Source: Syntrophales bacterium
GTDB lineage: Bacteria > Desulfobacterota > Syntrophia > Syntrophales > UBA6109
Assembly: GCA_035366835.1 (NCBI GenBank)
Contig: DAOSIS010000020.1
Span: forward strand, 3,552 to 67,551
DNA: 64,000 bases
Reading direction: 5' to 3'
Shown here: one piece after another, positions 20,687-49,087 of the stretch
Layout of the letters: each line of letters starts with the position of its first letter
Position numbering within the stretch: the stretch's first letter is position 1
The notes under the pieces: model-generated
What the model was told of the DNA's origin: nothing
Database searches by the model: none
What the model saw: only the letters and a program-made list of their open reading frames with translations
Made by a program: the position numbers and the translations under genes

Positions 20687-21297
20687 AGAAGATCGTCCTC
20701 GCGACGACCAACCGCGGGAAGCTCCGGGAGATCGAGGCGCTGTTGAGCGGGCTGGAAATCGCCCTCGTGACCGTTGCCGACTACCAGGGCGTGCCCGCCG
20801 TCGTGGAAGACGGGGACAGTTTCTTCGCCAACGCCTTCAAGAAGGCGCGGGTCGTCTGCACGGCGACGGATGAAGCGGCGCTGGCCGATGATTCGGGACT
20901 TGAGGTCGATTTTCTGGGAGGGGCGCCGGGCATCCGCTCGGCGCGGTACGCAGGAGAGGATGCGACGGACGAAGAGAACAACCGCATGCTTCTGGACGCC
21001 CTGAAGGGCGTGCCGCGGGAAAAGAGGGGCTGTGCATTCCGCTGCGTCCTGGTTCTGTACCTCCCGAACGGGGAGTACATCACCTGCGAAGGGACCTGGC
21101 GCGGCGAAGTGGCGGAGACGCCGGCAGGCAGCGGGGGATTCGGATACGACCCCATCGTTTACCTGCCGGAGCGGGGCCTGACGGTGGCCCAGCTTCCGCC
21201 GCGGGAGAAGAACCGCCTGAGCCACCGGGCCAAGGCATTGGCGAAACTCCGGGAAGAACTCCTCAGGATGAAGTCGGGGCGTAGCGCAGCCTGGTAG
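20683..21297 (+). CDS. rdgB: dITP/XTP pyrophosphatase (Ham1/RdgB)
   Basis: [23 protein letters not shown] and SHRAKAL are RdgB motifs. GTG 20683 overlaps the rph stop. The last 23 nt of the ORF run into tRNA-Pro. Confidence 0.87.
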
Positions 21298-21351
21298 CGC
21301 GCTTGCTTTGGGAGCAAGATGCCGCAGGTTCAAATCCTGCCGCCCCGACCA
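21275..21351 (+). tRNA. tRNA-Pro (anticodon TGG)
   Basis: Hand-folded cloverleaf. Acceptor stem is CGGGGCG/CGCCCCG. The D arm is GCGC-AGCCTGGTA-GCGC. The anticodon stem is CTTGC/GCAAG with loop TT-TGG-GA. The T arm is GCAGG-TTCAAAT-CCTGC. The CCA end is encoded. Confidence 0.93.
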
Positions 21352-21365
21352 ATCAAATCAAGCGG

Positions 21366-21608
21366 TTACGGTTTTCCCGTGACCGCTTTTTCTTTGGTGG
21401 GCGAGACTCCTGAGCGCGACTTTTCATTTTTTTTCTGCATCTCCTCGACCATGTGCATAGACGCGAACGATCATCTCGAGGCCTTGCGGCCGACGCACGC
21501 GGCGAGATCCATGATGTTCGCGCCAGCGGCCAAAGCGTGCGTGATATAGAAATGCCGAATGTCGTACAGACGGCCCCGCTTCTTGATGGCGGCAGCCGCG
21601 GGTTCGTG
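21366..21608 (-). pseudogene. Tyrosine recombinase (phage-type integrase) C-terminal remnant, frameshifted
   Basis: Minus-strand translation gives ...IKKRGRLYDIRHFYITHALAAGANIMDLAACVGRKASR*. This is box II with R-H. After frame shifts it continues ..GLEMIVRVYAH.. (the catalytic Tyr context) and ..MVEEMQKKNEKS... No N-terminal part is present. The remnant ends about 15 nt from the tRNA-Pro 3' end. Confidence 0.7.
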
Positions 21609-21781
21609 TCAACCGCTCTATCCCATGAGAAATGACCGATGAGGGCGGGAAGGGTTGTTGGATAAGCGCCAGCGTGACATCGATTCATTTGACGGACTGC
21701 CTTCACAGAGTCATCAATATATGTTAGCAAATGTCACATCTGTGCTGCTGTAATATTCCGAATAAAAAGCGGGAGTTCTGC

Positions 21782-24157
21782 ATGACAGACAGGAACGACG
21801 AAAAGGAATCTTCAAGAACCGTTCTTCCCTCTAATCCCCCAAAGAGCATCTCCAGTGGCCGGCACGCCGAGGATGCCCTTCGGGAAAGCGAAAAGAAATA
21901 CCGATTTCTTGCAGAAAAGATGACGGATATCGTGTGGATTCAGGATATGAACCTGCGCACCACCTACGTCAGCCCGTCGATTGAAGCGGTGCTTGGATTC
22001 ACTCCGGAAGAACGTGTGGCTCAGAGAGTTGAAGAACAATTGGCTCCGGCTTCGATGGCTTTCATCGCGGATCTCCTGGCGAAGGAGCTTTTGTTGGAAC
22101 AAGACGGGAAAGCGGATCCGAATAGAACTCTGACGGTCGAATTAGAATACTACCATAAGGACGGGTCCACTCGATGGCTGGAGAGTATCTTGAGCGGAAT
22201 CCGCGACGACAGGGGAATTCTGATCGGACTACACGGGGTATCACGAGATATCACCAGACGCAGAAAGGCGGAAGATGCGCTGAAAGAAAGCGAAGCGTTG
22301 TTGAAGAGCTGTCTGGAGAATGCTCCGGACGGCATTTACATGAGCGATCTTGAGGGCACTTTCCTTTACGGGAACCGAAAAAGCGAAGAGATTATCGGCT
22401 ATCGCCGCGAAGAGGTGATCGGGAAGAATTTCCTGGAAGCGGGACTTCTCAGCGAAAGGGATTTGAACAGGGCGATCGAACTGCTCAAAGCCAGCCTGGA
22501 GGGCAGGCCCACGGGGCCGGACGAATTCGAATTGATCGCCAAGGGAGGACAACGCGTCCCCGTCGAAATCAATACCTCGGTGGTTCAATACAAGGATCAA
22601 AAAGTTGCGCTTGGTTTCGTTCGCGATCTTACGGATCGGAAAAAGGCCGAGACGGCGTTGCGCGAGAGCGAAAAGAAATACAGAGAGCTCGTGGATTTCC
22701 TGCCCATATCGCTCTTCGAAGTTGACTTTGAAGGCAACGTTACCGCCGCAAACAGGGCCATCTTCGAGACTTTCAAATATGAACAAGCCGATCTCGAAAA
22801 AGGTCTGAATGCGTTTCAGCTGATGATCGCACCGGCCGACTGGAACAGGATGGCGGCGAACATCCAGAAACTGCTGCGGGGCGAAAAGAAGGGACCGTCG
22901 GAGTATACGGGGATCCGGAAAGACGGCAGCACATTTCCGTTTCTGATCTTTCCGGCCGTTATCGTTCGGGACGAGAAGCCCGTGGGATTGAGAGGGGCCA
23001 TCATCGATCTTACGGAGCGGAAGCGGATGGAGGAATCGCTTCGGAAGAGCAATCTGCGTCTGGCCGAAGCCCAGCGGATCGCCCATATCGGAAACTGGGA
23101 ATGGGACATCGACAGCCGGGAAATGTACTGGTCCGACGAGATGTACCGGATCGCTGGAATGCCCGCTCAGTCGATTCATGGGACCTATGAGAAATTCCTG
23201 GAGATCGTCCACCCCGAGGATCGAGAGACGATAAAGGAAACGGTAAAGAGGGCCGCAAATAAGGGGACAAAGAGCGAGATCGGCCATCGCGTCGTTCGAA
23301 GCGACGGCTCGGTCCGTGAAGTCCGCCAGAAAGTGGAACCGATATACAGCGATGCCGGCAGGATCGTCAGGGTGATCGGCATCGTCCAGGATGTTACGGA
23401 ACAGAATAGCGCGGAACGCGAACTGCAGACCGCCAGAGACTTGTTGCTCCAGTCGGAAAAACTCGCGGCAATCGGCCGGTTGTCCGCCGGAGTCGCACAC
23501 GAGATCCTGAACCCCGTGAATATCATCTCCATGGAATTGCAGATTCTGCAGGCCATGGAAAGCCTGTCGCCCGAGGTCGTGGAGGAATTGAAGATCTGTA
23601 TGAATCAGATCGGCCGGATCGTCACGATTACCGAGAACCTCAAACAGTTTTCCCGCGTCCCTCAAAAAAAGATGGCGATGGCCGATATCAATAACGTTAT
23701 TTCCCATATCATGATCTTGTACGACACGCAGTTGAAGATCGAAGGCATAGAAACGGAGATACAATACTGCCCGGGTCTGCCGAAAACCATCATGGACAAG
23801 GAACAGATAGGACAGGTCATCCAGAATCTGATTTCCAACGCAATGGCCGCCATGGAAGGGAAAGATAAGAAGGTGCTGCGGATAGCGTTGGAGAAGGAGA
23901 CCATGAATGAGGGGAATGACCGACTCAAGATCACGGTCACCGATACGGGCACCGGCATCAAGAACGAACATATGTCGAAAATCTTCGATCCGTTTTTCAC
24001 GACCAAGGGTCAGGGGAAGGGAACGGGATTGGGGCTTTCCATATCCTATGGTATAATCAAAGATCATGGTGGCGAGATCTGGGCGGGAAACAATCAATGG
24101 GGAGGTGCAAAGTTTTACATCCGGCTTCCGATTAGAAACGATGTGGACGAGACGTGA
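21782..24157 (+). CDS. Cytoplasmic sensor histidine kinase with about 4 PAS domains
   Basis: Repeated PAS blocks are separated by the linker form RDITxRKxAEEALRESE. The H-box is AAIGRLSAGVAHEILNP. HATPase motifs are NLISNA, DTGTGI and GTGLGLS. There are no TM segments. ATG 21782 follows GGGAG, with an alternative at 21731. Confidence 0.9.
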   Translation: MTDRNDEKESSRTVLPSNPPKSISSGRHAEDALRESEKKYRFLAEKMTDIVWIQDMNLRTTYVSPSIEAVLGFTPEERVAQRVEEQLAPASMAFIADLLAKELLLEQDGKADPNRTLTVELEYYHKDGSTRWLESILSGIRDDRGILIGLHGVSRDITRRRKAEDALKESEALLKSCLENAPDGIYMSDLEGTFLYGNRKSEEIIGYRREEVIGKNFLEAGLLSERDLNRAIELLKASLEGRPTGPDEFELIAKGGQRVPVEINTSVVQYKDQKVALGFVRDLTDRKKAETALRESEKKYRELVDFLPISLFEVDFEGNVTAANRAIFETFKYEQADLEKGLNAFQLMIAPADWNRMAANIQKLLRGEKKGPSEYTGIRKDGSTFPFLIFPAVIVRDEKPVGLRGAIIDLTERKRMEESLRKSNLRLAEAQRIAHIGNWEWDIDSREMYWSDEMYRIAGMPAQSIHGTYEKFLEIVHPEDRETIKETVKRAANKGTKSEIGHRVVRSDGSVREVRQKVEPIYSDAGRIVRVIGIVQDVTEQNSAERELQTARDLLLQSEKLAAIGRLSAGVAHEILNPVNIISMELQILQAMESLSPEVVEELKICMNQIGRIVTITENLKQFSRVPQKKMAMADINNVISHIMILYDTQLKIEGIETEIQYCPGLPKTIMDKEQIGQVIQNLISNAMAAMEGKDKKVLRIALEKETMNEGNDRLKITVTDTGTGIKNEHMSKIFDPFFTTKGQGKGTGLGLSISYGIIKDHGGEIWAGNNQWGGAKFYIRLPIRNDVDET

Positions 24158-24178
24158 CGGGAGATTCAGAGGTGTCTT

Positions 24179-24970
24179 ATGAGGAAGGTTCTTGTTGTTG
24201 ACGATGAAATCCACACGGTGAGACTGTTGAAAAAGTATCTGGATTCGAAAGACTACGATGTTTACACCGCTACCAACGGCATGGAAGCCATCGAAAAGGT
24301 AAAAGAGGTGAATCCCCAGGTTGTATTGCTCGATATCATCATGCCGGGTATGGGCGGCATCGATACTTTGAAGGAAATCAAGAAAATCGATCCGAAAATA
24401 GCGGTCATCATGGTGACGGCCGTAATCGACGAAGCACTGGCCAAGAAATCGCTTCAGTTGGGTGCCGACGATTATATTACAAAGCCTCTCGATCTGAATT
24501 TCATCGGGACCCGCGTCCTGGTCAAGATGTTTCAGCTTCTGAATCACGATGATACGAACCAGCCTTGTGAGCCGAAGAAGATTCTTCTTATCGACGACGA
24601 GGAAGATTTTTGCCGCGCCTTGAAGAAAGGGCTCGAGTTGAGGGGCGCATGCTACGACGTGCTGACGGCCACAGGGGGAGATGAGGGGATCTTTATCGCG
24701 AAGACTCAAAAGCCGGATCTGATCCTGCTCGACATCATGATGCCCGGTATGGCGGGCACCCAGGTGGCGGAGGAATTGTTGGAGGATCCCGAGACCAGCT
24801 CGATCCCGATCATATTTGTCACTGCCATAGTGAAACGGAGTGAAATCGAGAAGAACGACGGTCTCGTCGGTGGACGTACATTTATGGCAAAGCCTGTGAT
24901 CATCGATGAACTGATCAAGAAGATAAACGCCATGTCGCGCACACCACGGTTTGATCCTGCGGCCAACTGA
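24179..24970 (+). CDS. Tandem receiver (REC-REC) response regulator without an output domain
   Basis: There are two CheY-like modules. The first is KVLVVDDE...VLLDIIMPGMGG...VTA. The second is KILLIDDEE...LILLDIMMPGMAG...VTA. No HTH or enzymatic domain is present. Confidence 0.9.
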   Translation: MRKVLVVDDEIHTVRLLKKYLDSKDYDVYTATNGMEAIEKVKEVNPQVVLLDIIMPGMGGIDTLKEIKKIDPKIAVIMVTAVIDEALAKKSLQLGADDYITKPLDLNFIGTRVLVKMFQLLNHDDTNQPCEPKKILLIDDEEDFCRALKKGLELRGACYDVLTATGGDEGIFIAKTQKPDLILLDIMMPGMAGTQVAEELLEDPETSSIPIIFVTAIVKRSEIEKNDGLVGGRTFMAKPVIIDELIKKINAMSRTPRFDPAAN

Positions 24971-25205
24971 TACAGGTATTCACCGACTTTCTGCACAGGA
25001 GCCATCAATTCACTGGATAGGCACTTCAAGGGCCAAATGCCTTGATTTTGACTGAAATAATTGCTAATCTATTTATCAGAAATGAATAATAATCGATACT
25101 TGCAATGATTCTACTTCTCGACAGACTGCTTCGAACTGCAGCCGGCCGACGATCCTGTCTCTTCGGCGGTGTGTAGGTCGAGGCAGGGTAAGGAATGACA
25201 CGACT

Positions 25206-25532
25206 ATGCAATCCGTTCTGACCCTGATTATCGGCCTGCTCGCAGCGCTCGCCGCAGTCTTTTTCATTCAACGCTTCATGCTCCAGCGGGCGGTCAGACA
25301 GGTGGTCGAAATCTTCCGCCGCCACGACGCCTGTCATGCCGCCGGTGCAAAAACGCTGGAGGAATTGGGGCTCGGCCCCAAGAGTTTCATGACGAGAATG
25401 ACCACCCTCCGCGATTATAGGCCCGACGCCGTGAAGCTGCTCCTTCAGGGAGATATCATCCTGTCGACCGACGACGGGAAACTTTACCTCAGGGAAGACA
25501 GGCTCAGTCGCATTTTGCCGAAGGCAGCGTAG
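25206..25532 (+). CDS. Small hypothetical membrane-anchored protein (108 aa)
   Basis: There is one N-terminal hydrophobic helix (LTLIIGLLAALAAVFFI). I recognise no family and the RBS is weak. Confidence 0.35.
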   Translation: MQSVLTLIIGLLAALAAVFFIQRFMLQRAVRQVVEIFRRHDACHAAGAKTLEELGLGPKSFMTRMTTLRDYRPDAVKLLLQGDIILSTDDGKLYLREDRLSRILPKAA

Positions 25533-25651
25533 TACTGGCCTGCGGCACTTCCGCCAGGGAAGACCATCGCCGTCGCTCCCGTCCCCATGGATCCGCCGGT
25601 CCGCCGACGGCCCGCTTCTTTTATTCCATGTCCGACGTCAACCGGCGCCTT

Positions 25652-25756
25652 GAATCCGGCAGCGAGCGCATTCCCCGCAGCTTGCTGCGGGGTAAGAGAG
25701 AGAATCCTGTTTGAGATCCATTCCTTGGGGATCGAAGATTCTCCGGAGAGCTCACA
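25652..25756. repeat. Structured intergenic repeat, copy R1
   Basis: Roughly nine-tenths identical by eye over about 100 nt to 45909-46007, in the same orientation. It contains the hairpin CCGCAG-CTTG-CTGCGG, the GATCC../GGGGATC hairpin and the palindrome CTCCGGAG. Confidence 0.7.
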
Positions 25757-25917
25757 CACGATCCGCCACCAATCGGCAGCGCGGGGCCTGCCGTAAGGGT
25801 TTTCGAAGGGGCAAATCAGGGTAACGCTGATGGTGGATTGCTTTATCGTCCTTTATATAAATACGAGTTCATCATGAAAAGTCTTTTTGCGAGAAATCCA
25901 ACCTTAAGGAGAGGACT

Positions 25918-26382
25918 ATGAAAGGCAACGAAAAAGTGATCGAAAGATTGAATGCGCGTTTGGCTGACGAGTTGACGGCAATCAACCAGTACATGGTTCA
26001 CGCCGAGATGAGCGAGAACTGGGGCTACAAGAAATTGCAGGAAATGGTCCGCAAGCGGTCCATAACCGAGATGAAGCACGCGGAAAAACTCATCGAGCGC
26101 ATCCTTTTTCTGGAAGGCGCGCCGATCGTCTCCAATCTGAACAAAATCAAGATCGGTGCGGACGTGGAAAAGCAGTTTCAGAGCGATCACGCTGCAGAAC
26201 GCGATGCCATCCGATTCTACAACGAGGACATCGCCTTCGCCGGAGAAGTAGGCGATTTCGGGACGCGTGAGCTCCTGCAGAACATTCTTCTGGACGAAGA
26301 GAACCACATCGACGAGATCGAGGCGCAGTTCGATCAGATCAAGCAGATGGGCATTCAGAACTATCTGTCCGAAGTACGTTGA
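25918..26382 (+). CDS. bfr: Bacterioferritin
   Basis: MKGNEKVIERLNARLADELTAINQYMVHAEM matches Bfr. ITEMKHAEKLIERILFLEG includes the heme-ligand Met context. The RBS is AAGGAGAGG. Confidence 0.93.
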   Translation: MKGNEKVIERLNARLADELTAINQYMVHAEMSENWGYKKLQEMVRKRSITEMKHAEKLIERILFLEGAPIVSNLNKIKIGADVEKQFQSDHAAERDAIRFYNEDIAFAGEVGDFGTRELLQNILLDEENHIDEIEAQFDQIKQMGIQNYLSEVR

Positions 26383-26474
26383 TGCGCCGGCCAGCGCCGC
26401 CGGACAGAGCGGGTATCCCCGTATCCGGTCCGGACTGCTTCGGATAGTCCCAATGGAAAAAGAAAGGAGACGAC

Positions 26475-27071
26475 ATGGCCATTTCATTACCTGATCTGCC
26501 TTTTGCAAAAGGCGCTCTCGCACCTGTCATCAGCTCGCAGACGCTGGAATTCCATTACGGCAAGCATCACCGGGCCTATGTGGACAACGCCAACAAACTG
26601 ATCGCCGGAACGGCACTGGAGAAGGAGGATCTGGAGGTCATCATCCGGAAGACGCACAACAATCCCGCGCAGGCCGGTATCTTCAACAACACGGCTCAAG
26701 TCTGGAATCATTCCTTCTACTGGAAGTGCCTGAAGCCCGGTGGCGGGGGACCGCCGACGGGGGCTGTCGCGGCCATGATCAAGGATGTCTGGGGCGGTTA
26801 CGACAAGTTCGTGGAAGATCTCAAGGCGGCGGGGGCCACCCAGTTCGGCAGCGGGTGGGCATGGCTGGTCCTGGAGAACAACCGGCTGAAGATCACGAAG
26901 ACCCCGAACGCGGAAACGCCGATTGCGACCGGTTCGAAGCCCCTTCTCACCATCGACGTCTGGGAGCATGCGTACTATCTGGATTACCAGAACCGGCGGC
27001 CCGATTATCTGGCAGCCGTGATAGACAAATTGATCAACTGGGATTTCGTGAACACTTGCCTGGCATCATGA
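26475..27071 (+). CDS. sodB: Superoxide dismutase (Fe type)
   Basis: [38 protein letters not shown] and [15 protein letters not shown] are Fe/Mn-SOD signatures with Fe-type residues. Confidence 0.94.
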
Positions 27072-27105
27072 CGGACCGGGGCCTTGTCCGGAAAAGGAGA
27101 AGATC

Positions 27106-27717
27106 ATGAAGGTACTGGTTGTTTTCTACTCCATGTACGGGCACATCTACCGCATGGCCGAGGCTGTGAAGGAAGGTGCAGGCCGCGTGAACGGGGCTGA
27201 GGTGCATCTCTGCCGGGTCCCGGAGACGCTCTCGGACGAGATCCTGAAGAAGATGGAGGCGCTCGATGCTCAGAAAGGCTTTGCGCACGTGCCGGTCTGC
27301 AAAGTGGCGGATCTGCCGACGGCGGACGCCATCATTTTCGGCACTCCGACGCGTTTCGGCAACATGTGCGGGCAGATGCGCCAGTTCCTCGATGCAACCG
27401 GCGGCCTCTGGGCCAAGGGGGCACTGGTTGGGAAGGTCGGAAGCGTCTTCACCAGCAGCGCCACCCAGCACGGCGGACAGGAATCGACGATTCTCAGCTT
27501 TCATACGACCCTCTATCACCAGGGGATGATCGTTGTCGGCCTCCCCTATGCCTTTGCAGGGCAGATGCGGATCGACGAAATAACAGGCGGTTCACCATAC
27601 GGGGCGAGCACGATCGCCGGCGGGCAAGGGGAGCGAATGCCCAGCGAAAACGAACTGGAGGCCGCCCGTTACCAGGGCCGGCATGTCGCGGAAATCACGG
27701 CGAAGCTGGTTCGGTAG
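27106..27717 (+). CDS. wrbA: NAD(P)H:quinone oxidoreductase WrbA (flavodoxin-like)
   Basis: [30 protein letters not shown] and [12 protein letters not shown] are WrbA motifs. Confidence 0.92.
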
Positions 27718-27943: not shown

Positions 27944-29575
27944 ATGAAGACGAATCTTCGGGAAGAGACGCTCGCGGAGTTGTTGGCTGTCTGCAGGAAG
28001 ATCAGCGAGGAAAATATCGAGGATAAATCCCTGAAGACCCTCGCGGGGTTGGCCGGTGCGGAGTCCGTCGAGCTGGATTCGGAGATGCAGCGGGAGGTCA
28101 TCGAGGACATCAGCGACCACCGCCAATTGCTGAGAAAATTGATTCCCATTCTCCTGAAGATATTCCTCGTAACCTGCATCTTCTTTTCCAGCTACGAAGT
28201 GACAAAGCAGATCGTATTCACCAACATCGCCATCTGGCAGTCCCACATCATCACCATCATCTTTGCCGGCTTTGTGGCGACGTTCGGGGCTTACTTCCCC
28301 TTGAAGCGGATCGAAATCCTCTATCAAAAGAGCATCAATGAGCTTGTGGCCCGCAAGAAGGCCCAGGCGATCCTGCGGGAAAGCGAAGAACGTTACCGCC
28401 AGCTGTTCGAAATGGAATCCGACGCATTGTTCCTTTTTGACGAGCAGACAGATCGGATCCTCGAGACCAATGCCGCCAGTACGAGACTTTACGGATACCT
28501 CCGCGAAGATCTCCTGAAAATGAAGGGCGACGATCTTGTCGAGAAGAAGACCGTCGGATCTTTGAAGGAAAAGGGGAAATCCGAGCAGCAGGGTGAGTTC
28601 GTTTTTCACAGAAGGAATGATGGCAGTGTCTTTCCCGTGGAAATCGCCTCTTCTCAAATGACGTGGTACGGACGCAAGGTGAGGCTCTCTTCCGTCAGAG
28701 ACATCACGGAACGGCTGAACGCCCAGAAGAAGATCGAAAGCCAAAGGACCTTTCTGAAGAAAGTCATCGATGCCAATCCGAATTTCATCTATGTCAAGGA
28801 CAAGGAGAACAGGATCGTTCTCGCCAATCGGATCCTTGCGGATATCTTCAGGATTACGCCTGAAGAGATGACGGGCAAGAGCGTGGGTGAACTGACGCTC
28901 CATTCCGATTTCGCCGAGATCATCCATCGCGACGACATTTCGACCCTGAGCTTTGAAAAAGACCGCATCGAGCGTGAGGAGAGTTTTACCGATGCGGATG
29001 GTCAGAGACGCTGGATCTTCACGATCAAGGTCCCGATGAAGGACGAAGAAGGCCGCACCGATCAGATGATCGGGGTCAGCATCGACATCACCGAACGGAA
29101 ACACGCGGAAGATGTCCTGAAAAAGAGGGAAACGGAACTGGAAGTCAAGTCAAGGAACCTGGAGGAATTGAATGCCGCCCTCAAGGTGCTTCTCAAGCAG
29201 CGGGAGGCCGATAAGAAGGAAATAGAGGAGATGTTCCTGTCCAAAGTGAAGGGCCTTGTGATGCCCTACATCGAAAAGCTGAAGAACAGCGCACTTGCGG
29301 CAGAGCAAAGCGCCTATGTGGCGACCATCGAAGAGCATCTTCATGACATCATCTCGCCGTTCCTCACGAGCATCAAGTCCAAATACATCAATCTCACTCC
29401 CAAGGAAATCCAGGTGGTAAGTTTGATCAAGGACGGCAAATCCACGAAAGAGATAGCGGATTTGCTGAGCATATCCATCGGGTCGGTCGATATTCACAGG
29501 AATCACATCAGACGGAAACTGGGCATCAATAACAAGAATGTGAATCTGCGTTCCTATCTTCTCTCGATGCCTTAA
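27944..29575 (+). CDS. Membrane-associated PAS-PAS-LuxR-type transcriptional regulator (one-component)
   Basis: There are two hydrophobic helices (LIPILLKIFLVTCIFF and IITIIFAGFVATFGAYF) and two PAS blocks. A coiled-coil is followed by a C-terminal LuxR HTH, LTPKEIQVVSLIKDGKSTKEIADLLSISIGSVDIHRNHIRRKLGI. There is no REC domain. Confidence 0.88.
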   Translation: MKTNLREETLAELLAVCRKISEENIEDKSLKTLAGLAGAESVELDSEMQREVIEDISDHRQLLRKLIPILLKIFLVTCIFFSSYEVTKQIVFTNIAIWQSHIITIIFAGFVATFGAYFPLKRIEILYQKSINELVARKKAQAILRESEERYRQLFEMESDALFLFDEQTDRILETNAASTRLYGYLREDLLKMKGDDLVEKKTVGSLKEKGKSEQQGEFVFHRRNDGSVFPVEIASSQMTWYGRKVRLSSVRDITERLNAQKKIESQRTFLKKVIDANPNFIYVKDKENRIVLANRILADIFRITPEEMTGKSVGELTLHSDFAEIIHRDDISTLSFEKDRIEREESFTDADGQRRWIFTIKVPMKDEEGRTDQMIGVSIDITERKHAEDVLKKRETELEVKSRNLEELNAALKVLLKQREADKKEIEEMFLSKVKGLVMPYIEKLKNSALAAEQSAYVATIEEHLHDIISPFLTSIKSKYINLTPKEIQVVSLIKDGKSTKEIADLLSISIGSVDIHRNHIRRKLGINNKNVNLRSYLLSMP

Positions 29576-29863
29576 ACGCGTCGTTCCCCAAGCGTAAAAA
29601 CAGAACATATCAATTTGCTATGGGTTTGCTATATACTCATATCAATTCCGGACATTTTTCTTGACCCCGTTAATTTCTCAACATATTGAAACTAAATGAT
29701 AAATGTTAAATGCATTGAATGCAGTTTTATTTCATGGTCAACGAATCATTCACGCTATATATTTAATATAGGTTGTCTATATAATATTTTGACATTGCAA
29801 TCGTTTCCGTGCAAGCGTATCCTCACGCCATACATACTGTAGATTACGTAAATTCATTAACTT
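29576..29863 (+). promoter_or_regulatory. 288-bp strongly AT-rich intergenic region with phased short direct repeats
   Basis: CATATCAATT occurs twice (29606, 29638). TTTGCTAT occurs twice (29614, 29625). AAATGNN occurs three times in tandem (29694-29714). CTATATA occurs twice (29755, 29777). Several TTGACA/TTGACC-like hexamers are present. Confidence 0.5.
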
Positions 29864-30640
29864 ATGAAGAATTTGACAGGAGCCATGCTTGTGAACCGGA
29901 GAGGATTCATCAATGTGCCTGATCTGACGTGGTTCAGGACAACCTTGAAAGGCATCGACGAAACGGTCAGGAAGAGAGATGCACGGATGCCTGATTTCCA
30001 GTGGTCAAAGAAGCTGGAAATGGAGAAGCGAATGCGAGACCTCCTGCACCATCTCAGCGAGATCGCCCTGGTTTTGAAGCGATACGTCCACGTATCGTCG
30101 CGGGACGGCAAGAATTCGGCCGGGAGCACACCTGCCCTCTTTGCGGAAGCGGAGCGCTGCTGTCAGGATATGCGGGATTTCGTGGCGGTCGAAGCGAGAG
30201 GGAAGGTCTGTGACCGAAACGGAGGCAGGGTGTTTCTGGAGACGATGGACGACATCGCCCTGTTGATTGGCCGCTACAAAGAGCTGGCCGTCCAGCTGGA
30301 GATGAGTCACCCGGATATTCCTGGGCAATTTCAGGATGATTTCAGAATCCTCTTTCATGACGCCATTGAAGCCGTTGAGGCCTACATCCGTTCTTATCGC
30401 GTATTCTTCGGAAATCTGGAAGAGATTCACGACCATATCCACAAAGTGTTCTTCTGGTCGACGGAAGCCGGGAAATCCGCGGACAGGATCCAGCGGGCAC
30501 TTTTCAGAGAAGACGAAAACGGGGATCTGGGCCGCAAGATGCACTTGAGCCTGTTGGCGAAGCAGCTCTGCGGAATCGCAAACGGCGCAAATGACGCGGC
30601 AGATCATCTGAAGACCCACATCGTTCAAGACAGGCATTGA
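29864..30640 (+). CDS. Hypothetical helical protein, tentatively PhoU_div/DUF47-like
   Basis: 258-aa ORF. FLETMDDIALLIGRY and the C-terminal ANGANDAADHLKTHIVQD resemble DUF47 helix motifs by eye. The start is uncertain between ATG 29864 and 29885. Confidence 0.6.
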   Translation: MKNLTGAMLVNRRGFINVPDLTWFRTTLKGIDETVRKRDARMPDFQWSKKLEMEKRMRDLLHHLSEIALVLKRYVHVSSRDGKNSAGSTPALFAEAERCCQDMRDFVAVEARGKVCDRNGGRVFLETMDDIALLIGRYKELAVQLEMSHPDIPGQFQDDFRILFHDAIEAVEAYIRSYRVFFGNLEEIHDHIHKVFFWSTEAGKSADRIQRALFREDENGDLGRKMHLSLLAKQLCGIANGANDAADHLKTHIVQDRH

Positions 30641-30787
30641 CGGGCATCGCCGTTGCGCTTCTGCCGCCGCGGCTCCGTCCCGCTGCCCTTGACAATCTCC
30701 TCAAATTCACCGATGTTCGAAAATCGTCAACGCCGTTCAGCACGGCGGAGGGATTGTTTTCTGTTTTCGATAAGGAGATTGAATACT

Positions 30788-33700
30788 TTGAATCTGCTGC
30801 ATAAGTTTCGATTTGACAGAAGGGATTATGACCTTCTTGCGATGCTTCAGGAGGTCTTGGGCCGGAAAGACGAGCGCAAGAGTCTCAAGAACCTACTGAA
30901 TCCGTACCTGAATGCCCACGGCATCAAGGAAATGGCGGCTTCTCAGAGTTTCCGCATCGCCTACGCCATGGCGAATCTGCTGCAATCGCTGGAAATCGGC
31001 AAGGCGCATGACCGTCTGGGCGCCCTCCGCTCGCTTCGCCATGAAGTCATGAACATCACGCACAGCCCTCTTCGCCACAACACGGCGAGGATTCTTCTCC
31101 AGATCATGAAGGAGCTGATCCGGGAACAGGACGACCACATCAGGCAGCTCGAGCTCGCGCACGATTTCCGCAGCGCCCTGTCCGGGAAGCCGCGTCTGAT
31201 CCGCAGGGAATTGCAGCGATACCACCTGCTGGAAATGCCCGAGGAATGGAATCAGATCGCCTTCGACGACCATGTCCATGACGCCAATACGAAAGGGCGC
31301 AAGACGCCGACACACCTGATCATGGATGCCTGGATCAAGGGGATCCGCAGGCTGACGGTCGTCTACTACCATTACGTACCGAAAGAGGCCGCCTCGGAAC
31401 TCCTGGAGGCGGGGGAAATCATGGGGATCACCATCCGCATCGGTGTCTCCATTCCTTCACGGTTTCGCGGCTCGAGGATCCGCTTCATCTGGGTGCCGCG
31501 GGGGTTTTTCGATGCGCGCGATTTCCTCTCTTTCCTGTCCGATCCGCACGTCGAAGCGTTCATGAACGAGGGGCGGCAGATCTCCGAGGCGCAGAAGAAA
31601 TGCATCCTTGATCTGCTTGCGGAATTCAACCGTACGCACCGCGCCGCCGTCAACGAGGCCTTCGGCATCGAGCTTCCGGCGCTGTCTGAGGACGATTTCC
31701 TGTCCTTTGTCGCAAGCGGTCAGGCTTCCATTCTCCACCTTGCCGAATTCATTCATGCCCGTGTATTTCCGCTGGTGAAGAGCCGCCTGTCGGAGCTTCG
31801 TCTGCGTTTCGCGGAGGCGAAGGAAGACGAGAAGGACGGCATCCGGGGGCTCGTTCTGAGGATGCAGGCCTTCGATTCCGAGGCCGTCGTGGAGGAATAT
31901 CTGCGGCCCGTCCGCAATCCTTCTCTTCCGGATCCGAACTGGCCCTGGAAGGAATCGGATCTCCCGCCGCTGCTGAGGCTTTCACCCGCCGACCTCATCG
32001 AACGGCTTGACCGGCTTCACACCGGTTACAGGGTCTGTCTGAACCTGAGCGGCCTGAGCGTCAACGATGTCCTGGAACTCCTCTACGATTGCCGCGGCAG
32101 GATCACGCACCTCGAGATCTTCAACCTGAAGGATCACGTTGCCGGAAGGGCTCCGGACTACAGCGGGATCGGCAAGCTGCAGGAGGCGCTCAACGAGGGG
32201 AACGTGATCACGCTCAAGAAACTCATCCTGGGCCTCCTGAAAAGTCTGGAGCTTTCAACCTGCCCGGACCGCGACGAGAGAATCGCGAAGATGGCGGAGA
32301 TCCTCCGCAACATTGCGACGCTTCAGTCGTATTACAGCAAGGTCCCCCTCAAGGCGAATGTCGGCAGCGATTCCGCGAGCCGCTCCCCGCACCTGTACGG
32401 CATGGGACTGATCGTCCGCGATACGCTGAAGCGGAAGAATCAGGAAACAATCGCCGCTTCCCTGGGGCCGTCCATCCTCCTGTTGCCCGTTCACATGACG
32501 GTCTGCTACCGGACGACCTGCATTCCCGATGAGGCTGCGGGCTGGATCGGGAAGGCGCTCGGTTTTCTGTCGAAATTCCTGCCCGGGTTGCAGCATCTCG
32601 GTGAAAGGCATCTTCACGATTGGGAAGTTCAGGACAATGCGACGAAGATTTCCGAACAGGGCAACCTGATTCCGCTTGGCGGCGTGCAGGAGCACGTGGA
32701 CCAGGGACTCCGCCTGGAAGAGAAGGAAAACCGTTCAAAGGAGGAGTGGATCTGGAGATACATGAACACGGGCGTCAGGAACGCCGTGAAGGTGATCGTC
32801 GGATTCGTCCCGGCGTTTCTGACGTTTGCGCTGACAAAGGACTGGTGGCTTCTTGCCTACGGCGGGGCGTTCATCTGGTTCGGCATCACCGGGCTGCGCA
32901 ATATCCTGCAGTCGGTTCTGGGCGGCGGCGGTTTTCTGCGGTCGCCGCTGCTGCGGTGGAACGATTACGTGAGCTGGGGCAGGCTGACCGATTCCCTTCT
33001 CTTCACGGGTTTTTCGGTTCCCCTGCTCGATTATATCGTCAAGACGGTTCTCCTTGAAAGGGGGCTGGGGATCACGACGGCGACGAGCCCCACGGCATTG
33101 TACACGGTGATGGCCCTGGCCAACGGTCTGTACCTTTCCGGTCACAATGCCTTCCGCGGGCTGCCGAAGGGGGCGATTTTCGGAAACTTCTTCCGCAGCG
33201 TCCTCTCGATCCCGCTCGCCGTCGTCTTTAACGGAGCAGTCGCTCTTGTCTTGCAGGGCGCACAGGTTCCCGCCGTGAACGACGTCCTCCAGAAGTGGGC
33301 AGCCATCATCTCGAAGGCGGCTTCCGACTGCGTCGCCGGCATGATCGAGGGATTCGCCGACCGCTATGAAAACATCCGCATGAGGACGATGGATTATGCG
33401 GTCAAGATCCGGGAACTCTTCGGCATCTACGCCCGCCTGGAAGTGCTTTTCCCGCAGACGGACGTCCTGGACCTGCTGGGGTCGCCGGGGCGGTTTCTCC
33501 AGGCGGTCAAAGCGGAAGCCCAGGACGTGGTCTGGATCAGCATCATCAACGCCCTCGATCTTCTGTATTTCTGGATGTACCAACCCCGGGCGCGCAGCGT
33601 GCTGAAATCCAGCGTCAGGAAAATGTCGGAGGAGGAGCGAAAGATCTTCTTCCGCTCGCAGCTGATCCTTCAGCGGGACCGCGAAATCAGCCAGTTGTTT

Positions 33701-33805
33701 CTGGACGGCATCATCGGAAAGAATTTCTCCCGCGGGCTGTCCTTCTATCTGGATCACCACAAGGCATATCTCGAGAACCTGAAGAAGCTGTGCACCGTCG
33801 CGTGA
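30788..33805 (+). CDS. Large uncharacterised membrane protein (about 1005 aa)
   Basis: The long ORF has a soluble N-terminal region of about 700 aa and at least 5 hydrophobic helices. Examples are VIVGFVPAFLTFALT, WWLLAYGGAFIWFGITGL and FFRSVLSIPLAVVFNGAVALVL. A helical tail follows. TTG 30788 lies 10 nt after AAGGAG, with alternative ATGs at 30653 and 30713. I recognise no catalytic motif. Confidence 0.8.
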   Translation: MNLLHKFRFDRRDYDLLAMLQEVLGRKDERKSLKNLLNPYLNAHGIKEMAASQSFRIAYAMANLLQSLEIGKAHDRLGALRSLRHEVMNITHSPLRHNTARILLQIMKELIREQDDHIRQLELAHDFRSALSGKPRLIRRELQRYHLLEMPEEWNQIAFDDHVHDANTKGRKTPTHLIMDAWIKGIRRLTVVYYHYVPKEAASELLEAGEIMGITIRIGVSIPSRFRGSRIRFIWVPRGFFDARDFLSFLSDPHVEAFMNEGRQISEAQKKCILDLLAEFNRTHRAAVNEAFGIELPALSEDDFLSFVASGQASILHLAEFIHARVFPLVKSRLSELRLRFAEAKEDEKDGIRGLVLRMQAFDSEAVVEEYLRPVRNPSLPDPNWPWKESDLPPLLRLSPADLIERLDRLHTGYRVCLNLSGLSVNDVLELLYDCRGRITHLEIFNLKDHVAGRAPDYSGIGKLQEALNEGNVITLKKLILGLLKSLELSTCPDRDERIAKMAEILRNIATLQSYYSKVPLKANVGSDSASRSPHLYGMGLIVRDTLKRKNQETIAASLGPSILLLPVHMTVCYRTTCIPDEAAGWIGKALGFLSKFLPGLQHLGERHLHDWEVQDNATKISEQGNLIPLGGVQEHVDQGLRLEEKENRSKEEWIWRYMNTGVRNAVKVIVGFVPAFLTFALTKDWWLLAYGGAFIWFGITGLRNILQSVLGGGGFLRSPLLRWNDYVSWGRLTDSLLFTGFSVPLLDYIVKTVLLERGLGITTATSPTALYTVMALANGLYLSGHNAFRGLPKGAIFGNFFRSVLSIPLAVVFNGAVALVLQGAQVPAVNDVLQKWAAIISKAASDCVAGMIEGFADRYENIRMRTMDYAVKIRELFGIYARLEVLFPQTDVLDLLGSPGRFLQAVKAEAQDVVWISIINALDLLYFWMYQPRARSVLKSSVRKMSEEERKIFFRSQLILQRDREISQLFLDGIIGKNFSRGLSFYLDHHKAYLENLKKLCTVA

Positions 33806-33917
33806 CGGGACGGCGCGTCACGTTTCCTTCAGCGCGCGGAATTCTTCCCCCATCGGTGGAACGGAGGCGGATGGCCAGACCACGGGCCAGGCGGGCGAAG
33901 AGCGTTCGGCAGCGGAG

Positions 33918-35540: not shown

Positions 35541-36905
35541 TTATCTGCAGTCCGCGTGTCTTTTCATGGTCGCGGCAAGGGCGTCTTCGATCTCCCTGCG
35601 GATCGCGGCCAGGCGTTCGGGGCTTCGGGCTTCGAAGCGCAGGACCAGGACCGGCTGCGTATTGGACGGGCGCAGCAGTCCCCATCCGTCGCCGAAGGGG
35701 ACTCGGACTCCGTCGATGTCGATGATGGGGTACTTCGGACGGAAGAAGCTTTTCACTTCTTCAACGACTTGAAACTTGATGCTGTCGTGGCAGGAGACGC
35801 GGATCTCCGGCGTGGTGAAGGTTATGGGAACGTCGGCAAGAATCTCGCTCAGCTTCTGGCCGGAGAGCGAGAGGATTTCGAGGAGCCGGATGGCGGAGTA
35901 GATCGCGTCATCGAATCCGAAATACCGGTCCGCAAAGAACAGGTGGCCGCTCATTTCGCCGGCGAGCAGAGCCTTTTCCTCCTTCATCTTCCCTTTGATG
36001 AGCGAATGGCCCGCCTTCCACATGATGGGGCGCCCGCCGTGGCGGGCGATGTCGTCGTAGAGGTTCTGCGAGCACTTCACCTCGCCGATGATCGCCGCGC
36101 CGGGGTTTTCCTTGAGGATGAAACGGGAGAAGAGGAGGAGGATTTCGTCCCCCCAGAGGATGTCGCCCTTGTCCGTGATGACGCCGAGGCGGTCCGCGTC
36201 GCCGTCGAAGGCTAGGCCGGCGTCTGTTCCCTTGTCCCGGACGACGGCAATCAGCTCCTCGAGGTTGGCGGGCACGGTCGGATCGGGGAAATGATTCGGA
36301 AAGCGTCCGTCGGGCTCGCAGTGGATTTCGGCGATCCGGCATCCGAAGCGTCGGAAAATGGGAAGGGAGTACAGGCCGCCCACGCCGTTGCCGGCGTCGA
36401 CGGCGATGCTCAGCCCGGGCCGGACGCGCACGTTGTGAAAGAGGTAGTCCTGATAGGCTTGGACGATGTCCTCCGTGGTGGAGGACCCCGACCCGTCACG
36501 GTAAGCGCCCGCCTGCATGATCCGGTAGAGTTCCTGGATATCGTTCCCATGGATCGTATCGGGGCCGACGCAGATCTTGAAACCGTTGAACTCGGGGGGG
36601 TTGTGGCTGCCGGTTACCATGACGCCGCCGTCGGCACCGAGGTGGCGGATCGAGAAATAGAGCATGGGGGTCGCGCAGAGGCCGATATCGACAACCTGCA
36701 TCCCCGCCGAGATGAGCCCCTCCCGGATCGCTGCGGCATAGGATTCCGAACTGAGGCGGCAGTCGCGGCCGAGCGTCATGGTCTTCGCGGCGCGTGCGGC
36801 CGCGAACGTGCCGATGGCCCTGCCGAGAGCGATGACGAATTCGGTCGTCAGGTCCTTGCCGACAATGCCGCGGACGTCGTATTCGCGAAATACTTCCGGA
36901 TTCAT
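35541..36905 (-). CDS. Phosphomannomutase/phosphoglucomutase
   Basis: FREYDVRG, GVMVTGSHNPPEFNGFK (active-site Ser), FDGDADR and GEMSGH are PMM/PGM motifs. ATG 36905 overlaps the upstream gene stop. Confidence 0.93.
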   Translation of the reverse strand: MNPEVFREYDVRGIVGKDLTTEFVIALGRAIGTFAAARAAKTMTLGRDCRLSSESYAAAIREGLISAGMQVVDIGLCATPMLYFSIRHLGADGGVMVTGSHNPPEFNGFKICVGPDTIHGNDIQELYRIMQAGAYRDGSGSSTTEDIVQAYQDYLFHNVRVRPGLSIAVDAGNGVGGLYSLPIFRRFGCRIAEIHCEPDGRFPNHFPDPTVPANLEELIAVVRDKGTDAGLAFDGDADRLGVITDKGDILWGDEILLLFSRFILKENPGAAIIGEVKCSQNLYDDIARHGGRPIMWKAGHSLIKGKMKEEKALLAGEMSGHLFFADRYFGFDDAIYSAIRLLEILSLSGQKLSEILADVPITFTTPEIRVSCHDSIKFQVVEEVKSFFRPKYPIIDIDGVRVPFGDGWGLLRPSNTQPVLVLRFEARSPERLAAIRREIEDALAATMKRHADCR

Positions 36906-37969
36906 GACGGGGCTTTCCTTTCCGAAGGGAGACGAAACCCGAATTCCTTCAGCTGGACGTGCGTATTGATCAACTGTTCGATCAGGGCGATCTTGTCCGC
37001 ATCGTCCTTGGTGGGCAGGGATTCCATGAGATCGATCTGCTTGGCGACGGCGTACGTGTCCGACGAGACGAGCAGCAGCGGGATCTCGAGTTTCGAGGCC
37101 TTGGCGATCAGGTTCGCAGGCGGCATGATGTTGTTGGTGAGGATGACGGCGGACGCGTTGCTGCCGAGGGCGGCCACGATCATGTCGCTGCGGTCCCCGC
37201 TCGTGATCACGACCTTGTGCTCTTCCTGGAAGAGGGGGTTCTTCAGGGCCGAACTGGCGGACATGGAGCCGATGAAGATGGCCTTGACCTGCCGGCAAAG
37301 CTGGGATTCGCCCGTGATGATCTTCGCGAACAGGCGGTCGGCGAGATAGCTCACGGTGAAGAGCGGAAGTTCGGCGTCGTAAGGGATGATTCCCAGGACG
37401 TTGACGCCCAGTTCCCTGATCTTCGGAAGGCGTGTCTCGGCGAATTCCGACGCATTGGGCACTTTGTTGACGACGACGCCCCGGAAACGTACCGGGTCGA
37501 GGCGGATCCGGCGCTTGAGAAAGATGACGTCGTCGAGGATCTGGTCCTCGTCGCCCGACACCACGACGACCAGATCTGCGTCGGCGTACTGCGCCAGGGA
37601 AAGGGCGTCGAGGTGAACGGCGCTTCCGTACTGGATATCGCGGCCCGCCTCGATGAAGAAGAGGTCCTTCTCCTTGCCCAGCGTCCCCACCAGATCCGTG
37701 ATCTTCGACCGGGTCGCCTCTTCGTCCAGCATGAAGAGGAGTTTCGCGTGGTGGAAGCCGATGCTCATGTCCTCGGGGTTTTCATCGAGCCCGAAGATGT
37801 TCGTGACGAGGGCGGCGTCGTAGTCCCAGAGCCTCTTCTTGCGGTACAGGAAGCGCTCGCCGAAAGGCTTGATATAGCCGATCCTGCCACCCAGGGCTTT
37901 TGCAAGCCCGATGATGAGGCTCGTTTTCCCGGCGCTGGGCCGCGTCGACGTAACCACAATTCTGTTCAT
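36902..37969 (-). CDS. Stand-alone Pta N-terminal-like module (BioD-like P-loop fold plus DRTGG domain), with no PTA catalytic domain
   Basis: MNRIVVTSTRPSAGKTSLIIGLAKAL resembles the N-terminus of long Pta proteins. VITSGDRSDMIVAAL is a DRTGG-type motif. At 355 aa the protein is too short to include a phosphotransacetylase domain. Confidence 0.82.
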   Translation of the reverse strand: MNRIVVTSTRPSAGKTSLIIGLAKALGGRIGYIKPFGERFLYRKKRLWDYDAALVTNIFGLDENPEDMSIGFHHAKLLFMLDEEATRSKITDLVGTLGKEKDLFFIEAGRDIQYGSAVHLDALSLAQYADADLVVVVSGDEDQILDDVIFLKRRIRLDPVRFRGVVVNKVPNASEFAETRLPKIRELGVNVLGIIPYDAELPLFTVSYLADRLFAKIITGESQLCRQVKAIFIGSMSASSALKNPLFQEEHKVVITSGDRSDMIVAALGSNASAVILTNNIMPPANLIAKASKLEIPLLLVSSDTYAVAKQIDLMESLPTKDDADKIALIEQLINTHVQLKEFGFRLPSERKAPS

Positions 37970-45908: not shown

Positions 45909-46025
45909 GAATCCAGCAGCGAGCGCATTCCTCGCAGCTTGCTGCGGGGGATGCGAGCGAATCCTGTTGAAGATCCCCTCCTTGGGGATCGAAGATTCTC
46001 CGGAGCTTTGCTCCGGAGAGCTTCA
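45909..46025. repeat. Structured intergenic repeat, copy R2
   Basis: Homologous to R1 at 25652-25756. It has a longer imperfect hairpin, CGAGCGCATTCCTCGCAGC/GCTGCGGGGGATGCGAGCG. It also carries the GATCCCC-TCCTT-GGGGATC hairpin and a duplicated CTCCGGAG palindrome. It starts 1 nt upstream of the hydrolase ATG. Confidence 0.7.
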
Positions 46026-46157
46026 ATGCTCCGTCCGTTGTCGACCGGAAACCGGGGCAAGCCCCCGCCTCGGGTCGGGCCGGCGGGATGAGGAACGTCA
46101 CGGGGGCCAGCCCGGAAAAGAGGGAAAAGCGGCTTACAGGCGGCGTCGAGGCCTGCG

Positions 46158-48940: not shown

Positions 48941-48948
48941 GGAATTCT

Positions 48949-49025: not shown

Positions 49026-49046
49026 GGTCGTTTTGAGGAACACCCC

Positions 49047-49073: not shown

Positions 49074-49087
49074 TCGTCAAAGCCGGG

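Follow-up and report, generated by a model that had tools for sequence, protein, structure and literature searches.

A diverged DUF47-like protein beside a large membrane protein with a predicted PHP-type barrel in a Syntrophales genome

We use profile searches, predicted structures and comparisons of gene neighbourhoods to study two co-directional genes, here called ORF1 and ORF2, in a 64,000-nucleotide stretch of DNA from a Syntrophales bacterium (GenBank assembly GCA_035366835.1, contig DAOSIS010000020.1, positions 3,552 to 67,551 of the forward strand). This whole 64-kb stretch is referred to as the window, and coordinates without a locus label are positions within it. The explanation that we favour, with a probability of about 0.6, is that these are two real genes of different histories, namely a diverged member of the DUF47/PhoU_div family (ORF1) and a member of a large family of membrane proteins with a PHP-type fold (ORF2), that their adjacency is specific to one clade, and that ORF2 would have a role connected with phosphorylated compounds. 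An earlier note, made from the letters of this DNA alone, had read the pair as an uncharacterised two-gene module; both of the genes that it described are present:

29864 to 30640, forward strand: ORF1, diverged DUF47/PhoU_div protein of 258 amino acids (aa), from profile matches and orthologue alignment
30788 to 33805, forward strand: ORF2, 1005 aa, TTG start, from homologue alignments and structure models

The ends of both genes follow from their relatives. For ORF1 the first ATG (29864) is the likely start because orthologues align from residue 1; one gene caller places the start at 29885, which gives 251 aa. The maximal reading frame of ORF2 (30653-33805) would encode 1050 aa and is over-extended. 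In every homologue the protein begins with the residue that TTG 30788 encodes, and an AAGGAG ribosome-binding site (30772-30777) lies ten bases ahead of this codon; we therefore describe ORF2 as a protein of 1005 aa, so that the membrane protein of roughly 1000 aa described before is kept and the longer frame is corrected.

ORF2 contains a predicted PHP-type barrel

We built two AlphaFold2 models of ORF2, the first from 31 sequences (pLDDT 76) and the second from 72 sequences of both subfamilies of the family described below (pLDDT 83.7, pTM 0.83). Compared with the PDB by Foldseek, both models give the same top matches, all of them TrpH-type PHP phosphoesterases found at a probability of 1.00: BAD_1165 (3e0f at 2.2e-5, 3o0f at 7e-5), RNase AM of V. 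cholerae (9etk at 2.1e-4, with a TM-score of 0.62 on the target) and Cv1693 (2yb1 at 1.4e-3). Across these four TrpH-type structures the TM-score on the target is 0.58-0.62, and 18 of the 25 entries that come next are Pol III alpha/PolC or other PHP-domain proteins. Cv1693 is the 3',5'-nucleotide bisphosphate phosphatase of C. violaceum, and BAD_1165 is from B. adolescentis. As a test of fold, the models thus place residues ~155-545 of ORF2 in a predicted PHP-type barrel of the TrpH type, within the following order of domains:

30788 to 31237, forward strand: N-terminal helical domain, predicted cytoplasmic, aa 1-150 (model secondary structure; no hydrophobic segment)
31250 to 32422, forward strand: PHP-like (beta/alpha) barrel, TrpH type, aa ~155-545 (Foldseek, hhalign and NCBIfam matches of the distant subfamily)
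31271 to 31279, forward strand: PHP motif I, H162-V-H164, in the invariant block D160..D165..G170-R-K172 (72-sequence alignment)
31514 to 32017, forward strand: helical insertion of ~170 aa in the PHP barrel, aa 243-410 (model)
32480 to 32677, forward strand: beta-rich linker, aa ~565-630 (model strands 568-580, 606-621 and 627-629)
32768 to 33343, forward strand: membrane region of six predicted helices, aa 661-852 (three clearly hydrophobic, three polar or amphipathic)
33344 to 33802, forward strand: C-terminal helical domain, predicted cytoplasmic, aa 853-1005 (pLDDT 76-95; conserved in both subfamilies)

Sequence-profile comparison leans towards the same fold. With E. coli rnm and three TrpH-type sequences recovered from PDB alignments as targets, hhalign places aa 158-236 of the ORF2 family on positions 7-83 of the four TrpH proteins (P=0.004), in a register that puts D160-x-H162-x-H164 on D11-x-H13-x-H15 of E. 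coli RNase AM, T-K-G on S-D-G, T-P on T-P and R-I-G-V-(E/S) on I-P-G-V-E. H162 is invariant in the family (72/72 sequences) and H164 is present in 70 of the 72. Searched against NCBIfam, members of the distant subfamily match models of PHP type along this stretch too, NF041661 at 3.7e-6, NF041577 at 3.8e-4 and NF047791 (RNase RNM), the matches ranging to 0.1. The earlier statement that the soluble region carries no catalytic signature is therefore wrong, because the invariant D160-x-H162-x-H164-D165 motif lies in a barrel to which Foldseek assigns the PHP fold.

The TrpH/YciV PHP enzymes (RNase AM, 7ug9/9etk; Cv1693, 2yb1; BAD_1165, 3e0f/3o0f) have a (beta/alpha)7 barrel of distorted shape with a helical insert, which is also what is predicted for ORF2. 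Like them, ORF2 has an HxH that ends strand 1 and is followed by the x-x-G and T-P positions, and it shares G-S-D-S near the last strand; G-x-E on strand 3 is found in most of the ORF2 family. Unlike these enzymes, which are soluble proteins of ~290 aa with three metals held by nine ligands, ORF2 has 1005 aa, is membrane-embedded and carries the ~170-aa insertion.

C-terminal to the barrel, the membrane region holds a set of residues invariant in the family (W697, T701, R704, N705, S736, T740, G741, S743 and P745, followed by N779, G780, H786, N787, R790, R803, P809 and K843). The way in which Lys and Arg are spread over the loops suggests that both termini, and with them both large soluble parts, face the cytoplasm. 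This agrees with the layout first proposed, a soluble region of about 700 aa, at least five helices and a tail of about 170 aa, for which we now find ~650 aa, five to six membrane helices (aa 661-852) and a helical tail of ~150 aa. We looked for an internal repeat in the membrane domain and for similarity between the N-terminal and C-terminal domains and found none, and the Foldseek searches of the PDB with the two models gave no membrane protein at E<1 except for spurious whole-length alignments, so that the membrane region is left without a fold match there.

A large family without a database entry

The family to which ORF2 belongs comprises over 2,581 clusters of homologues when grouped at 90% identity, or 677 representatives at 50% identity. 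Of 185,579 species genomes at least 555 have a relative, and most of these are Thermodesulfobacteriota; the carriers include Syntrophales, Desulfobacterales, Syntrophobacterales, Desulfobulbales, Desulfatiglandales and strain NaphS2. The genes are chromosomal and encode predicted inner-membrane proteins of about 950-1050 aa. Core members are at least 50% identical across orders, and a core alignment of 31 sequences, reaching down to 55% identity, has a mean column identity of 68%. A distant subfamily of 920-970 residues has the same architecture at 24-28% identity, matches the core profile at about 1e-85 and occurs in Riflebacteria (Ozemobacter), Bradymonadales, Spirochaetota and Desulfococcaceae (Desulfonema). 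Across both subfamilies (72 sequences) 49 positions are invariant.

That ORF2 falls in no characterised family, as had been proposed, is borne out by profile searches. Searched against Pfam, 39 family members (31 core and 8 distant ones, at E<=10) and 10 additional representatives (at E<=0.1) were without a match; NCBIfam gave nothing for the window's ORF2 at E<=1, and a search of PDB sequences with the family profile gave nothing at E<=10. Family members bear nearly no informative names, some distant ones being called 'PHP domain-containing protein' or 'TrpH' by their sources, and in the literature on DUF47 with phosphate and on PHP-domain membrane proteins we found nothing about this family. 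The same Pfam searches remove the SpecificRecomb family PF10136, which had been put forward as a candidate for ORF2 and was never matched, as well as any transporter family; all that PF10136 and ORF2 have in common is a large soluble part followed by C-terminal membrane helices. ORF2 likewise has no match to PF01384 (PiT/PHO4), and the GANDxxN signature is absent from it. We also considered anti-phage defence: PADLOC models gave nothing at E<=1 for either ORF1 or ORF2, both genes are chromosomal and have no plasmid or phage copies, and we reject a defence-system identity for either protein.

The putative metal site is eroded in the window's clade

In RNase AM three Mn ions are bound, alpha by H13/E72/D255, beta by E72/H83/H198 and gamma by D20/H45/H257, and the D20A and E72A mutants are inactive (PMC9410882). 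The proposed equivalents of these residues in ORF2, and their state in the clade of the window, in the other core members and in the distant subfamily, are as follows:

H13/H15, ORF2 162/164: H/H in the window's clade; H/H in other core members; H/H in the distant subfamily
D20, ORF2 169: K in the window's clade; K in other core members; E or D in 38/41 of the distant subfamily
H45, ORF2 195: N in 10/12 of the window's clade, H in the window itself; N in other core members; D or N in the distant subfamily
E72, ORF2 221: S in 12/12 of the window's clade; E in 16/19 other core members; E in 41/41 of the distant subfamily
H83, ORF2 232: R in the window's clade; Q or R in other core members; H in 39/41 of the distant subfamily
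H198, ORF2 441 (E443 invariant everywhere): H in the window's clade; H in other core members; H in 13/41 of the distant subfamily
D255, ORF2 528: D in the window's clade; D in other core members; D in 29/41 of the distant subfamily
H257, ORF2 530: T or A in the window's clade; T, S or A in other core members; T or S in the distant subfamily

The ORF2 of the window keeps H162, H164, H441 and D528 among the ligand equivalents, with H195, H441 and D528 as possible counterparts of H45, H198 and D255; it has S221 for E72, R232 for H83, K169 for D20 and A530 for H257. The full set of nine ligands is thus not present in it, three or four of the nine being replaced. Serine also stands at position 221 in 62 of the 120 best matches. 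Further invariant residues of ORF2 are D165, R171, K172, D180, K184, E204, N281, H317, E443 and N446.

Read through this alignment, the distant subfamily has the look of a metallo-enzyme that works. The bridging Glu appears to be lost from the window's clade, with Lys and Arg at former metal-ligand positions, and canonical catalysis is doubtful there because three or four of the nine metal ligands are replaced. We infer that the pocket in this clade more likely binds an anion or phospho-ligand, or holds a reduced metal site, than carries out canonical three-metal hydrolysis; real phosphoesterase activity in the clade would be possible, at rather less than even odds.

How far might this erosion go? 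One alternative to our explanation is that the PHP-like domain in the window's clade is a catalytically dead pseudo-enzyme whose only part would be to sense or to gate, with the membrane domain making up a channel or transporter for, say, phosphate or some other anion. The four replacements S221, R232, K169 and A530 would fit this, two of them standing where the RNase AM mutants D20A and E72A lose activity (PMC9410882); direct binding of an anion would go well with basic side chains where metal ligands once stood and also with the invariant R171 and K172, and the membrane helices hold invariant Arg, Lys, His and Asn. However, H162, H164, D165, E204, E443, N446 and D528 are invariant or nearly so, as would be expected of a working site, and in the distant subfamily six of the nine equivalents are retained, to which the Asp at the H45 position and E443, invariant and close to the H198 position, might add a further two ligands, so that this subfamily looks catalytic. 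The membrane domain moreover has no transporter-like internal repeat and matches no known channel fold. On balance we regard the pseudo-enzyme as somewhat unlikely.

ORF1 is taken to be a diverged member of the DUF47 family

The resemblance of ORF1 to DUF47, first noticed by eye, is real. ORF1 matches PF01865 over profile positions 7-212 of 214 at E=3e-4 (20.6 bits against a gathering threshold of 24.4) and TIGR00153 at E=1.7e-5. We aligned a family of nine proteins, including distant relatives (25-38% identity) from four genome loci fetched with ORF2; eight of the nine match PF01865, the best at 1.8e-25, and the family profile matches the DUF47 structures 2iiu (3.8e-5) and 3l39 (1.5e-3). Judged on all of this profile evidence together, we accept ORF1 as a diverged member of DUF47/PhoU_div (PF01865, TIGR00153, COG1392; 2iiu/2olt, 3l39), of which it covers nearly the whole profile. 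The near-full-length match to this all-helical family also predicts that ORF1 is all-helical, as had been supposed.

Its divergence is equally plain. Canonical DUF47 genes that lie beside PiT in three homologue-bearing loci (L005, L001 and L015; L numbers label the fetched stretches that bear homologues) encode proteins whose C-terminal half is well conserved with ORF1. Unlike them, ORF1 stays below the Pfam threshold, carries a clade-specific N-terminal extension of ~50 aa and has altered acidic motifs (ANDAAD against AEDVAD of canonical members). DUF47/PhoU_div genes normally neighbour PiT phosphate permeases; ORF1 has no such neighbour, neither a PiT motif nor a homologue being found across the 64 kb. 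Homologues of ORF1 form only five clusters in 5.8 billion proteins. Against its L081 orthologue dN/dS is 0.14 overall, 0.31 in the N-terminal half and 0.06 in the C-terminal half; the gene is maintained under purifying selection and is not decaying.

ORF1 also has a helical-bundle likeness and a weak profile similarity to PhoU (PF01895), which is matched by 3/9 family members (best 1.3e-3), and its family profile matches the PhoU structure 1t72 at 3.4e-4 over a C-terminal helix. PhoU differs in being a separate family, a regulator of the Pst transporter with other partners (PstSCAB/PhoR), and there are no pst genes nearby.

Adjacency of the two genes is confined to a narrow clade

Now we consider whether the two genes belong together. 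We examined 80 genome loci of core ORF2 and sought DUF47 within about 6 kb. It was found in four of the 80 (L014, L005, L001 and L015) and was absent from 75 of the 79 other loci in which the reading frame of the ORF2 homologue could be placed; a first DUF47 hidden Markov model (HMM) missed the type found in L093, and when three types were merged into one HMM it still gave no DUF47 in the remaining core loci, although very divergent DUF47s could escape it. Every carrier of the ORF1 type has the pair adjacent (the window, L081-L083, L084 and L014). In L014 the order is that of the window (PAS-LuxR, DUF47, ORF2), and L081-L083 and L084 share with the window a wider order of ferritin, superoxide dismutase (SOD), flavodoxin, PAS-LuxR, DUF47, ORF2, HD, aldolase and PGM. 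In L001, L005 and L015 DUF47 is paired with PiT as usual, 1-3.5 kb from ORF2: in L005 PiT and DUF47 share a strand and diverge from LysR-ORF2, the arrangement in L001 differs from this by the PAS-LuxR gene in between, and L015 has ORF2, HAD, a type I phosphodiesterase and LysR, then DUF47-PiT.

The adjacency of ORF1 and ORF2 is thus a lineage-specific rearrangement in a narrow Syntrophaceae clade and not a widespread system. The simplest history would start from an ancestral Syntrophaceae neighbourhood with DUF47-PiT beside LysR-ORF2; in the window's lineage PiT and LysR would have been lost, leaving DUF47 directly against ORF2 behind the same PAS-LuxR gene. In L002 (2890-3138) only the last 83 residues of a PiT gene can be made out, 2 kb upstream of LysR-ORF2, and DUF47 is absent. 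This locus may be a decaying PiT-DUF47 pair, an intermediate of the loss proposed for the window's lineage.

No operon partner of ORF2 is conserved, as judged by all-vs-all clustering of ORFs in the 80 loci and by Pfam searches of 71 upstream neighbours. Neighbours of core ORF2 include LysR (5), PanC (4) and a Na/H exchanger (4), with alanine racemase downstream in 9 related loci; the neighbour families common to both subfamilies under unbiased clustering are only generic ABC, LysR, pyruvate kinase and phosphohexomutase.

A functional two-gene module, in which the DUF47 protein would regulate ORF2 as a transporter in the way that DUF47 is thought to regulate PiT, has several observations on its side. 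Adjacency is kept in all lineages with this type of ORF1, ORF1 is intact (dN/dS 0.14) although no PiT is nearby, the 147-bp gap between the genes (30641-30787) holds no terminator-like site, the clade-specific extension and faster-evolving N-terminal half of ORF1 fit a change of partner, and the wider ORF2 family recurs beside DUF47-PiT. Set against these are the distribution of the two families (at least 555 species for ORF2 against five clusters for this ORF1 type), the lack of DUF47 near ORF2 at most placeable loci (75/79), the fact that where PiT occurs DUF47 abuts PiT rather than ORF2, and a conserved promoter-like block between the genes; a PiT gene may also sit elsewhere in the genome, of which 64 kb are visible. 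We consider such a module unlikely, and as a general arrangement it fails on the disparity between more than 2,500 ORF2 clusters and five of ORF1 and on the absence of DUF47 at 75/79 other loci. Conserved neighbourhood, which that note had proposed as a check, holds in every lineage with this ORF1 type and does not hold family-wide.

Phosphate-related genes recur beside the ORF2 family

We favour, then, two genes of different histories with a phospho-compound role, and we propose that role for ORF2 because genes of its family recur beside phosphate or phosphodiester genes in several unrelated lineages. For the distant subfamily we examined 86 loci (80 of them from scanning metagenomes, the other six found by exact look-up), which makes about 167 for both subfamilies. 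PHO4 and PhoU_div genes abut the distant ORF2 homologue upstream and divergently in L093 and L094, and downstream on its own strand in L125; in L102 PhoU_div lies 3.4 kb upstream. A glycerophosphodiesterase gene (GDPD) abuts the distant gene upstream on the same strand, with a 0-5 nt gap or an overlap, in L092, L099 and L112, and one lies 20 nt downstream of the core-family homologue in L010. The type I phosphodiesterase and HAD genes of L015 belong to the same set, and Pfam confirms all of these neighbours. In all, about 15 of about 167 loci, drawn from both subfamilies and showing at least five arrangements, have a phosphate or phosphodiester gene as a neighbour. With roughly one pair per 4-Mb genome, a 15-kb stretch is expected to hold PiT-DUF47 in ~0.4% of cases by our own rough estimate, or in fewer than one locus here, and nine or ten are seen.

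The link between the ORF2 family and phosphate genes is suggestive and may be real. Of the phosphate connection at first supposed for the pair, what survives is this loose association with DUF47-PiT, which recurs in very distant lineages; a module made of a DUF47 protein and a giant protein does not.

Some further neighbours may be mentioned. In Desulfonema limicola (CP061799; L088 4140-6988) a GAF-PtsP (enzyme I-Ntr) gene, itself preceded by an EIIA-Man gene, ends 13 nt before the start of the distant homologue dnl_61210, an operon-like arrangement with a phosphotransfer system seen in this one instance. In two Desulfococcaceae genomes archease lies near the distant homologue, joined in one of them by RtcB (12487-12900 in L091; 3406-4845 and 8867-9328 in L092, which has both genes). 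RtcB is an RNA 2',3'-cyclic phosphate ligase, and this proximity may be coincidence or may be tied to the cyclic-phosphate chemistry of some PHP enzymes. A phosphohexomutase gene (PGM/PMM or GlmM-like) lies within a few genes of ORF2 in the window (35541-37298, reverse strand) and in L089 (4044-5393), and near the homologue in 9/86 distant-subfamily loci, possibly through synteny within one lineage.

Regulatory regions and surroundings of the pair

Upstream of and between the two genes lie the following features:

27944 to 29575, forward strand: PAS-PAS-LuxR(GerE) regulator (Pfam domains from the contig annotation)
29576 to 29863, forward strand: AT-rich intergenic spacer, 288 bp, 33% G+C, holding a single sigma-70-like site and a palindromic motif that occurs twice
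30641 to 30787, forward strand: ORF1-ORF2 gap, 147 bp, with a TTGACA block (30698-30703) and the AAGGAG ribosome-binding site (30772-30777)

The PAS-LuxR regulator is the conserved upstream neighbour of the pair in the window's clade. Its orthologue in L081 is 92% identical, and orthologues of 63-64% identity stand upstream of DUF47 in L014 and beside DUF47 in L001. The AT-rich spacer noticed earlier is present as described and is likely the promoter/operator region for ORF1. The palindromic motif TATAGGTTNTCTATA has copies at 29619-29633 and 29767-29781 and occurs three times in the whole window (0.38 expected); its 3' copy and flank are conserved in L081 and L084. These palindromes may be an operator, perhaps of the adjacent PAS-LuxR regulator.

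In the ORF1-ORF2 gap, the search for a terminator-like site gave none, and the block around TTGACA (30690-30720) is kept in three lineages. This TTGACA may be an internal promoter, and ORF2 may therefore keep a promoter of its own. A 55-aa ORF at 30637-30804 in the JGI annotation, which bridges the ORF1 stop and the ORF2 start, was rejected since related sequences carry indels that disrupt its frame, which makes a real gene here improbable. An Rfam search of the spacers for riboswitches or other RNAs gave a single chance-level match, inside ORF1.

Downstream, the window has only a 112-bp gap (33806-33917) between ORF2 and the HD-domain gene, where L081 (11959-14190) and L082 (6812-9043) carry a gene for a SulP-STAS-cNMP-binding transporter. 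Upstream of the PAS-LuxR gene is an oxidative-stress cluster (~25900-27717) of a ferritin/rubrerythrin-like gene, an Fe/Mn SOD (26475-27071) and a WrbA-type flavodoxin (27106-27717), in what is presumably a strict anaerobe; its synteny is kept in L081. In Desulfonema ishimotonii (L091) the distant ORF2 homologue is likewise followed by a ferritin gene.

The pair had been placed at a seam in base composition. The dip in G+C is real at ORF1 and the regulator upstream of it (PAS-LuxR 0.51, spacer 0.33, ORF1 0.54, ORF2 0.59, window 0.60); both the dip and the gene order are common to relatives, and the dip is a native, shared feature and not a seam of transfer. A recently acquired island, to which the drop to 0.45-0.54 over 28-31 kb against 0.60 window-wide might point, is already contradicted and extremely improbable: the order ferritin-SOD-flavodoxin-PAS/LuxR-DUF47-ORF2-HD-aldolase-PGM is the same in a relative with 84% ORF2 identity, L081 and L014 show the same relative dip at PAS-LuxR and ORF1, G+C at third codon positions (GC3, 0.68-0.78) is in line with neighbouring genes, and tblastn against 72,556 plasmids and 50,697 phages came up empty. 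Other stretches of lower G+C (0.50-0.57) lie at 21000-26000, with a large multi-PAS sensor and a response regulator, and at 46000-50000.

Discussion

The picture that emerges for ORF2 would be, in order, a cytoplasmic helical N-terminal domain, a TrpH-like PHP barrel into which a large helical segment is inserted, a linker rich in beta strands, a membrane part of six polar helices and a cytoplasmic helical C-terminal domain. Its most likely role would be the binding or hydrolysis of a phosphorylated compound on the cytoplasmic side of the membrane, for which the PHP-like pocket and the membrane domain would act jointly.

Several points weigh against this picture. For the fold, PF02811 is matched by no family member tested, the NCBIfam matches of the distant subfamily are partial (model positions 1-76) and far under the cut-offs, and the hhalign P-value is only 0.004; the residue equivalences between ORF2 and RNase AM past aa 236 come from motif order and predicted strands, not from superposition. 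The role of the membrane domain is a guess because it has no known structural relative. For the phosphate link, about 90% of the loci have no phosphate-related neighbour and no neighbour is conserved family-wide, the base rate is rough, and the independence of the lineages is uncertain. Finally, a conserved promoter-like TTGACA block separates the two genes, and co-transcription or interaction of ORF1 and ORF2 is supposition.

A bolder version can be stated, as a long shot: the ORF2 family would be an unrecognised membrane machine for phosphorus handling in anaerobes (Thermodesulfobacteriota, Riflebacteria, Spirochaetota and Bradymonadales), in which binding or cleavage of an organophosphate or a phospholipid head group would fall to the PHP-derived cytoplasmic domain, a new six-helix fold would translocate or present the substrate, and, in the window's lineage, DUF47 would have been re-targeted from PiT to ORF2.

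What makes the locus worth attention is that the ORF2 family is strongly conserved and spans more than 550 species of bacteria, for the most part anaerobes, syntrophs and sulfate reducers, yet has no Pfam, NCBIfam or PDB entry. The predicted PHP-type fold, the metal site that seems progressively eroded in one branch and the PiT-DUF47 and glycerophosphodiesterase neighbours give a first concrete handle on it, and the DUF47 gene offers a clean example of a regulator gene outliving its transporter partner in a locus. If the phosphate link is true, the family would be a new component of the phosphorus economy or the membrane-lipid turnover of organisms central to anaerobic carbon cycling.

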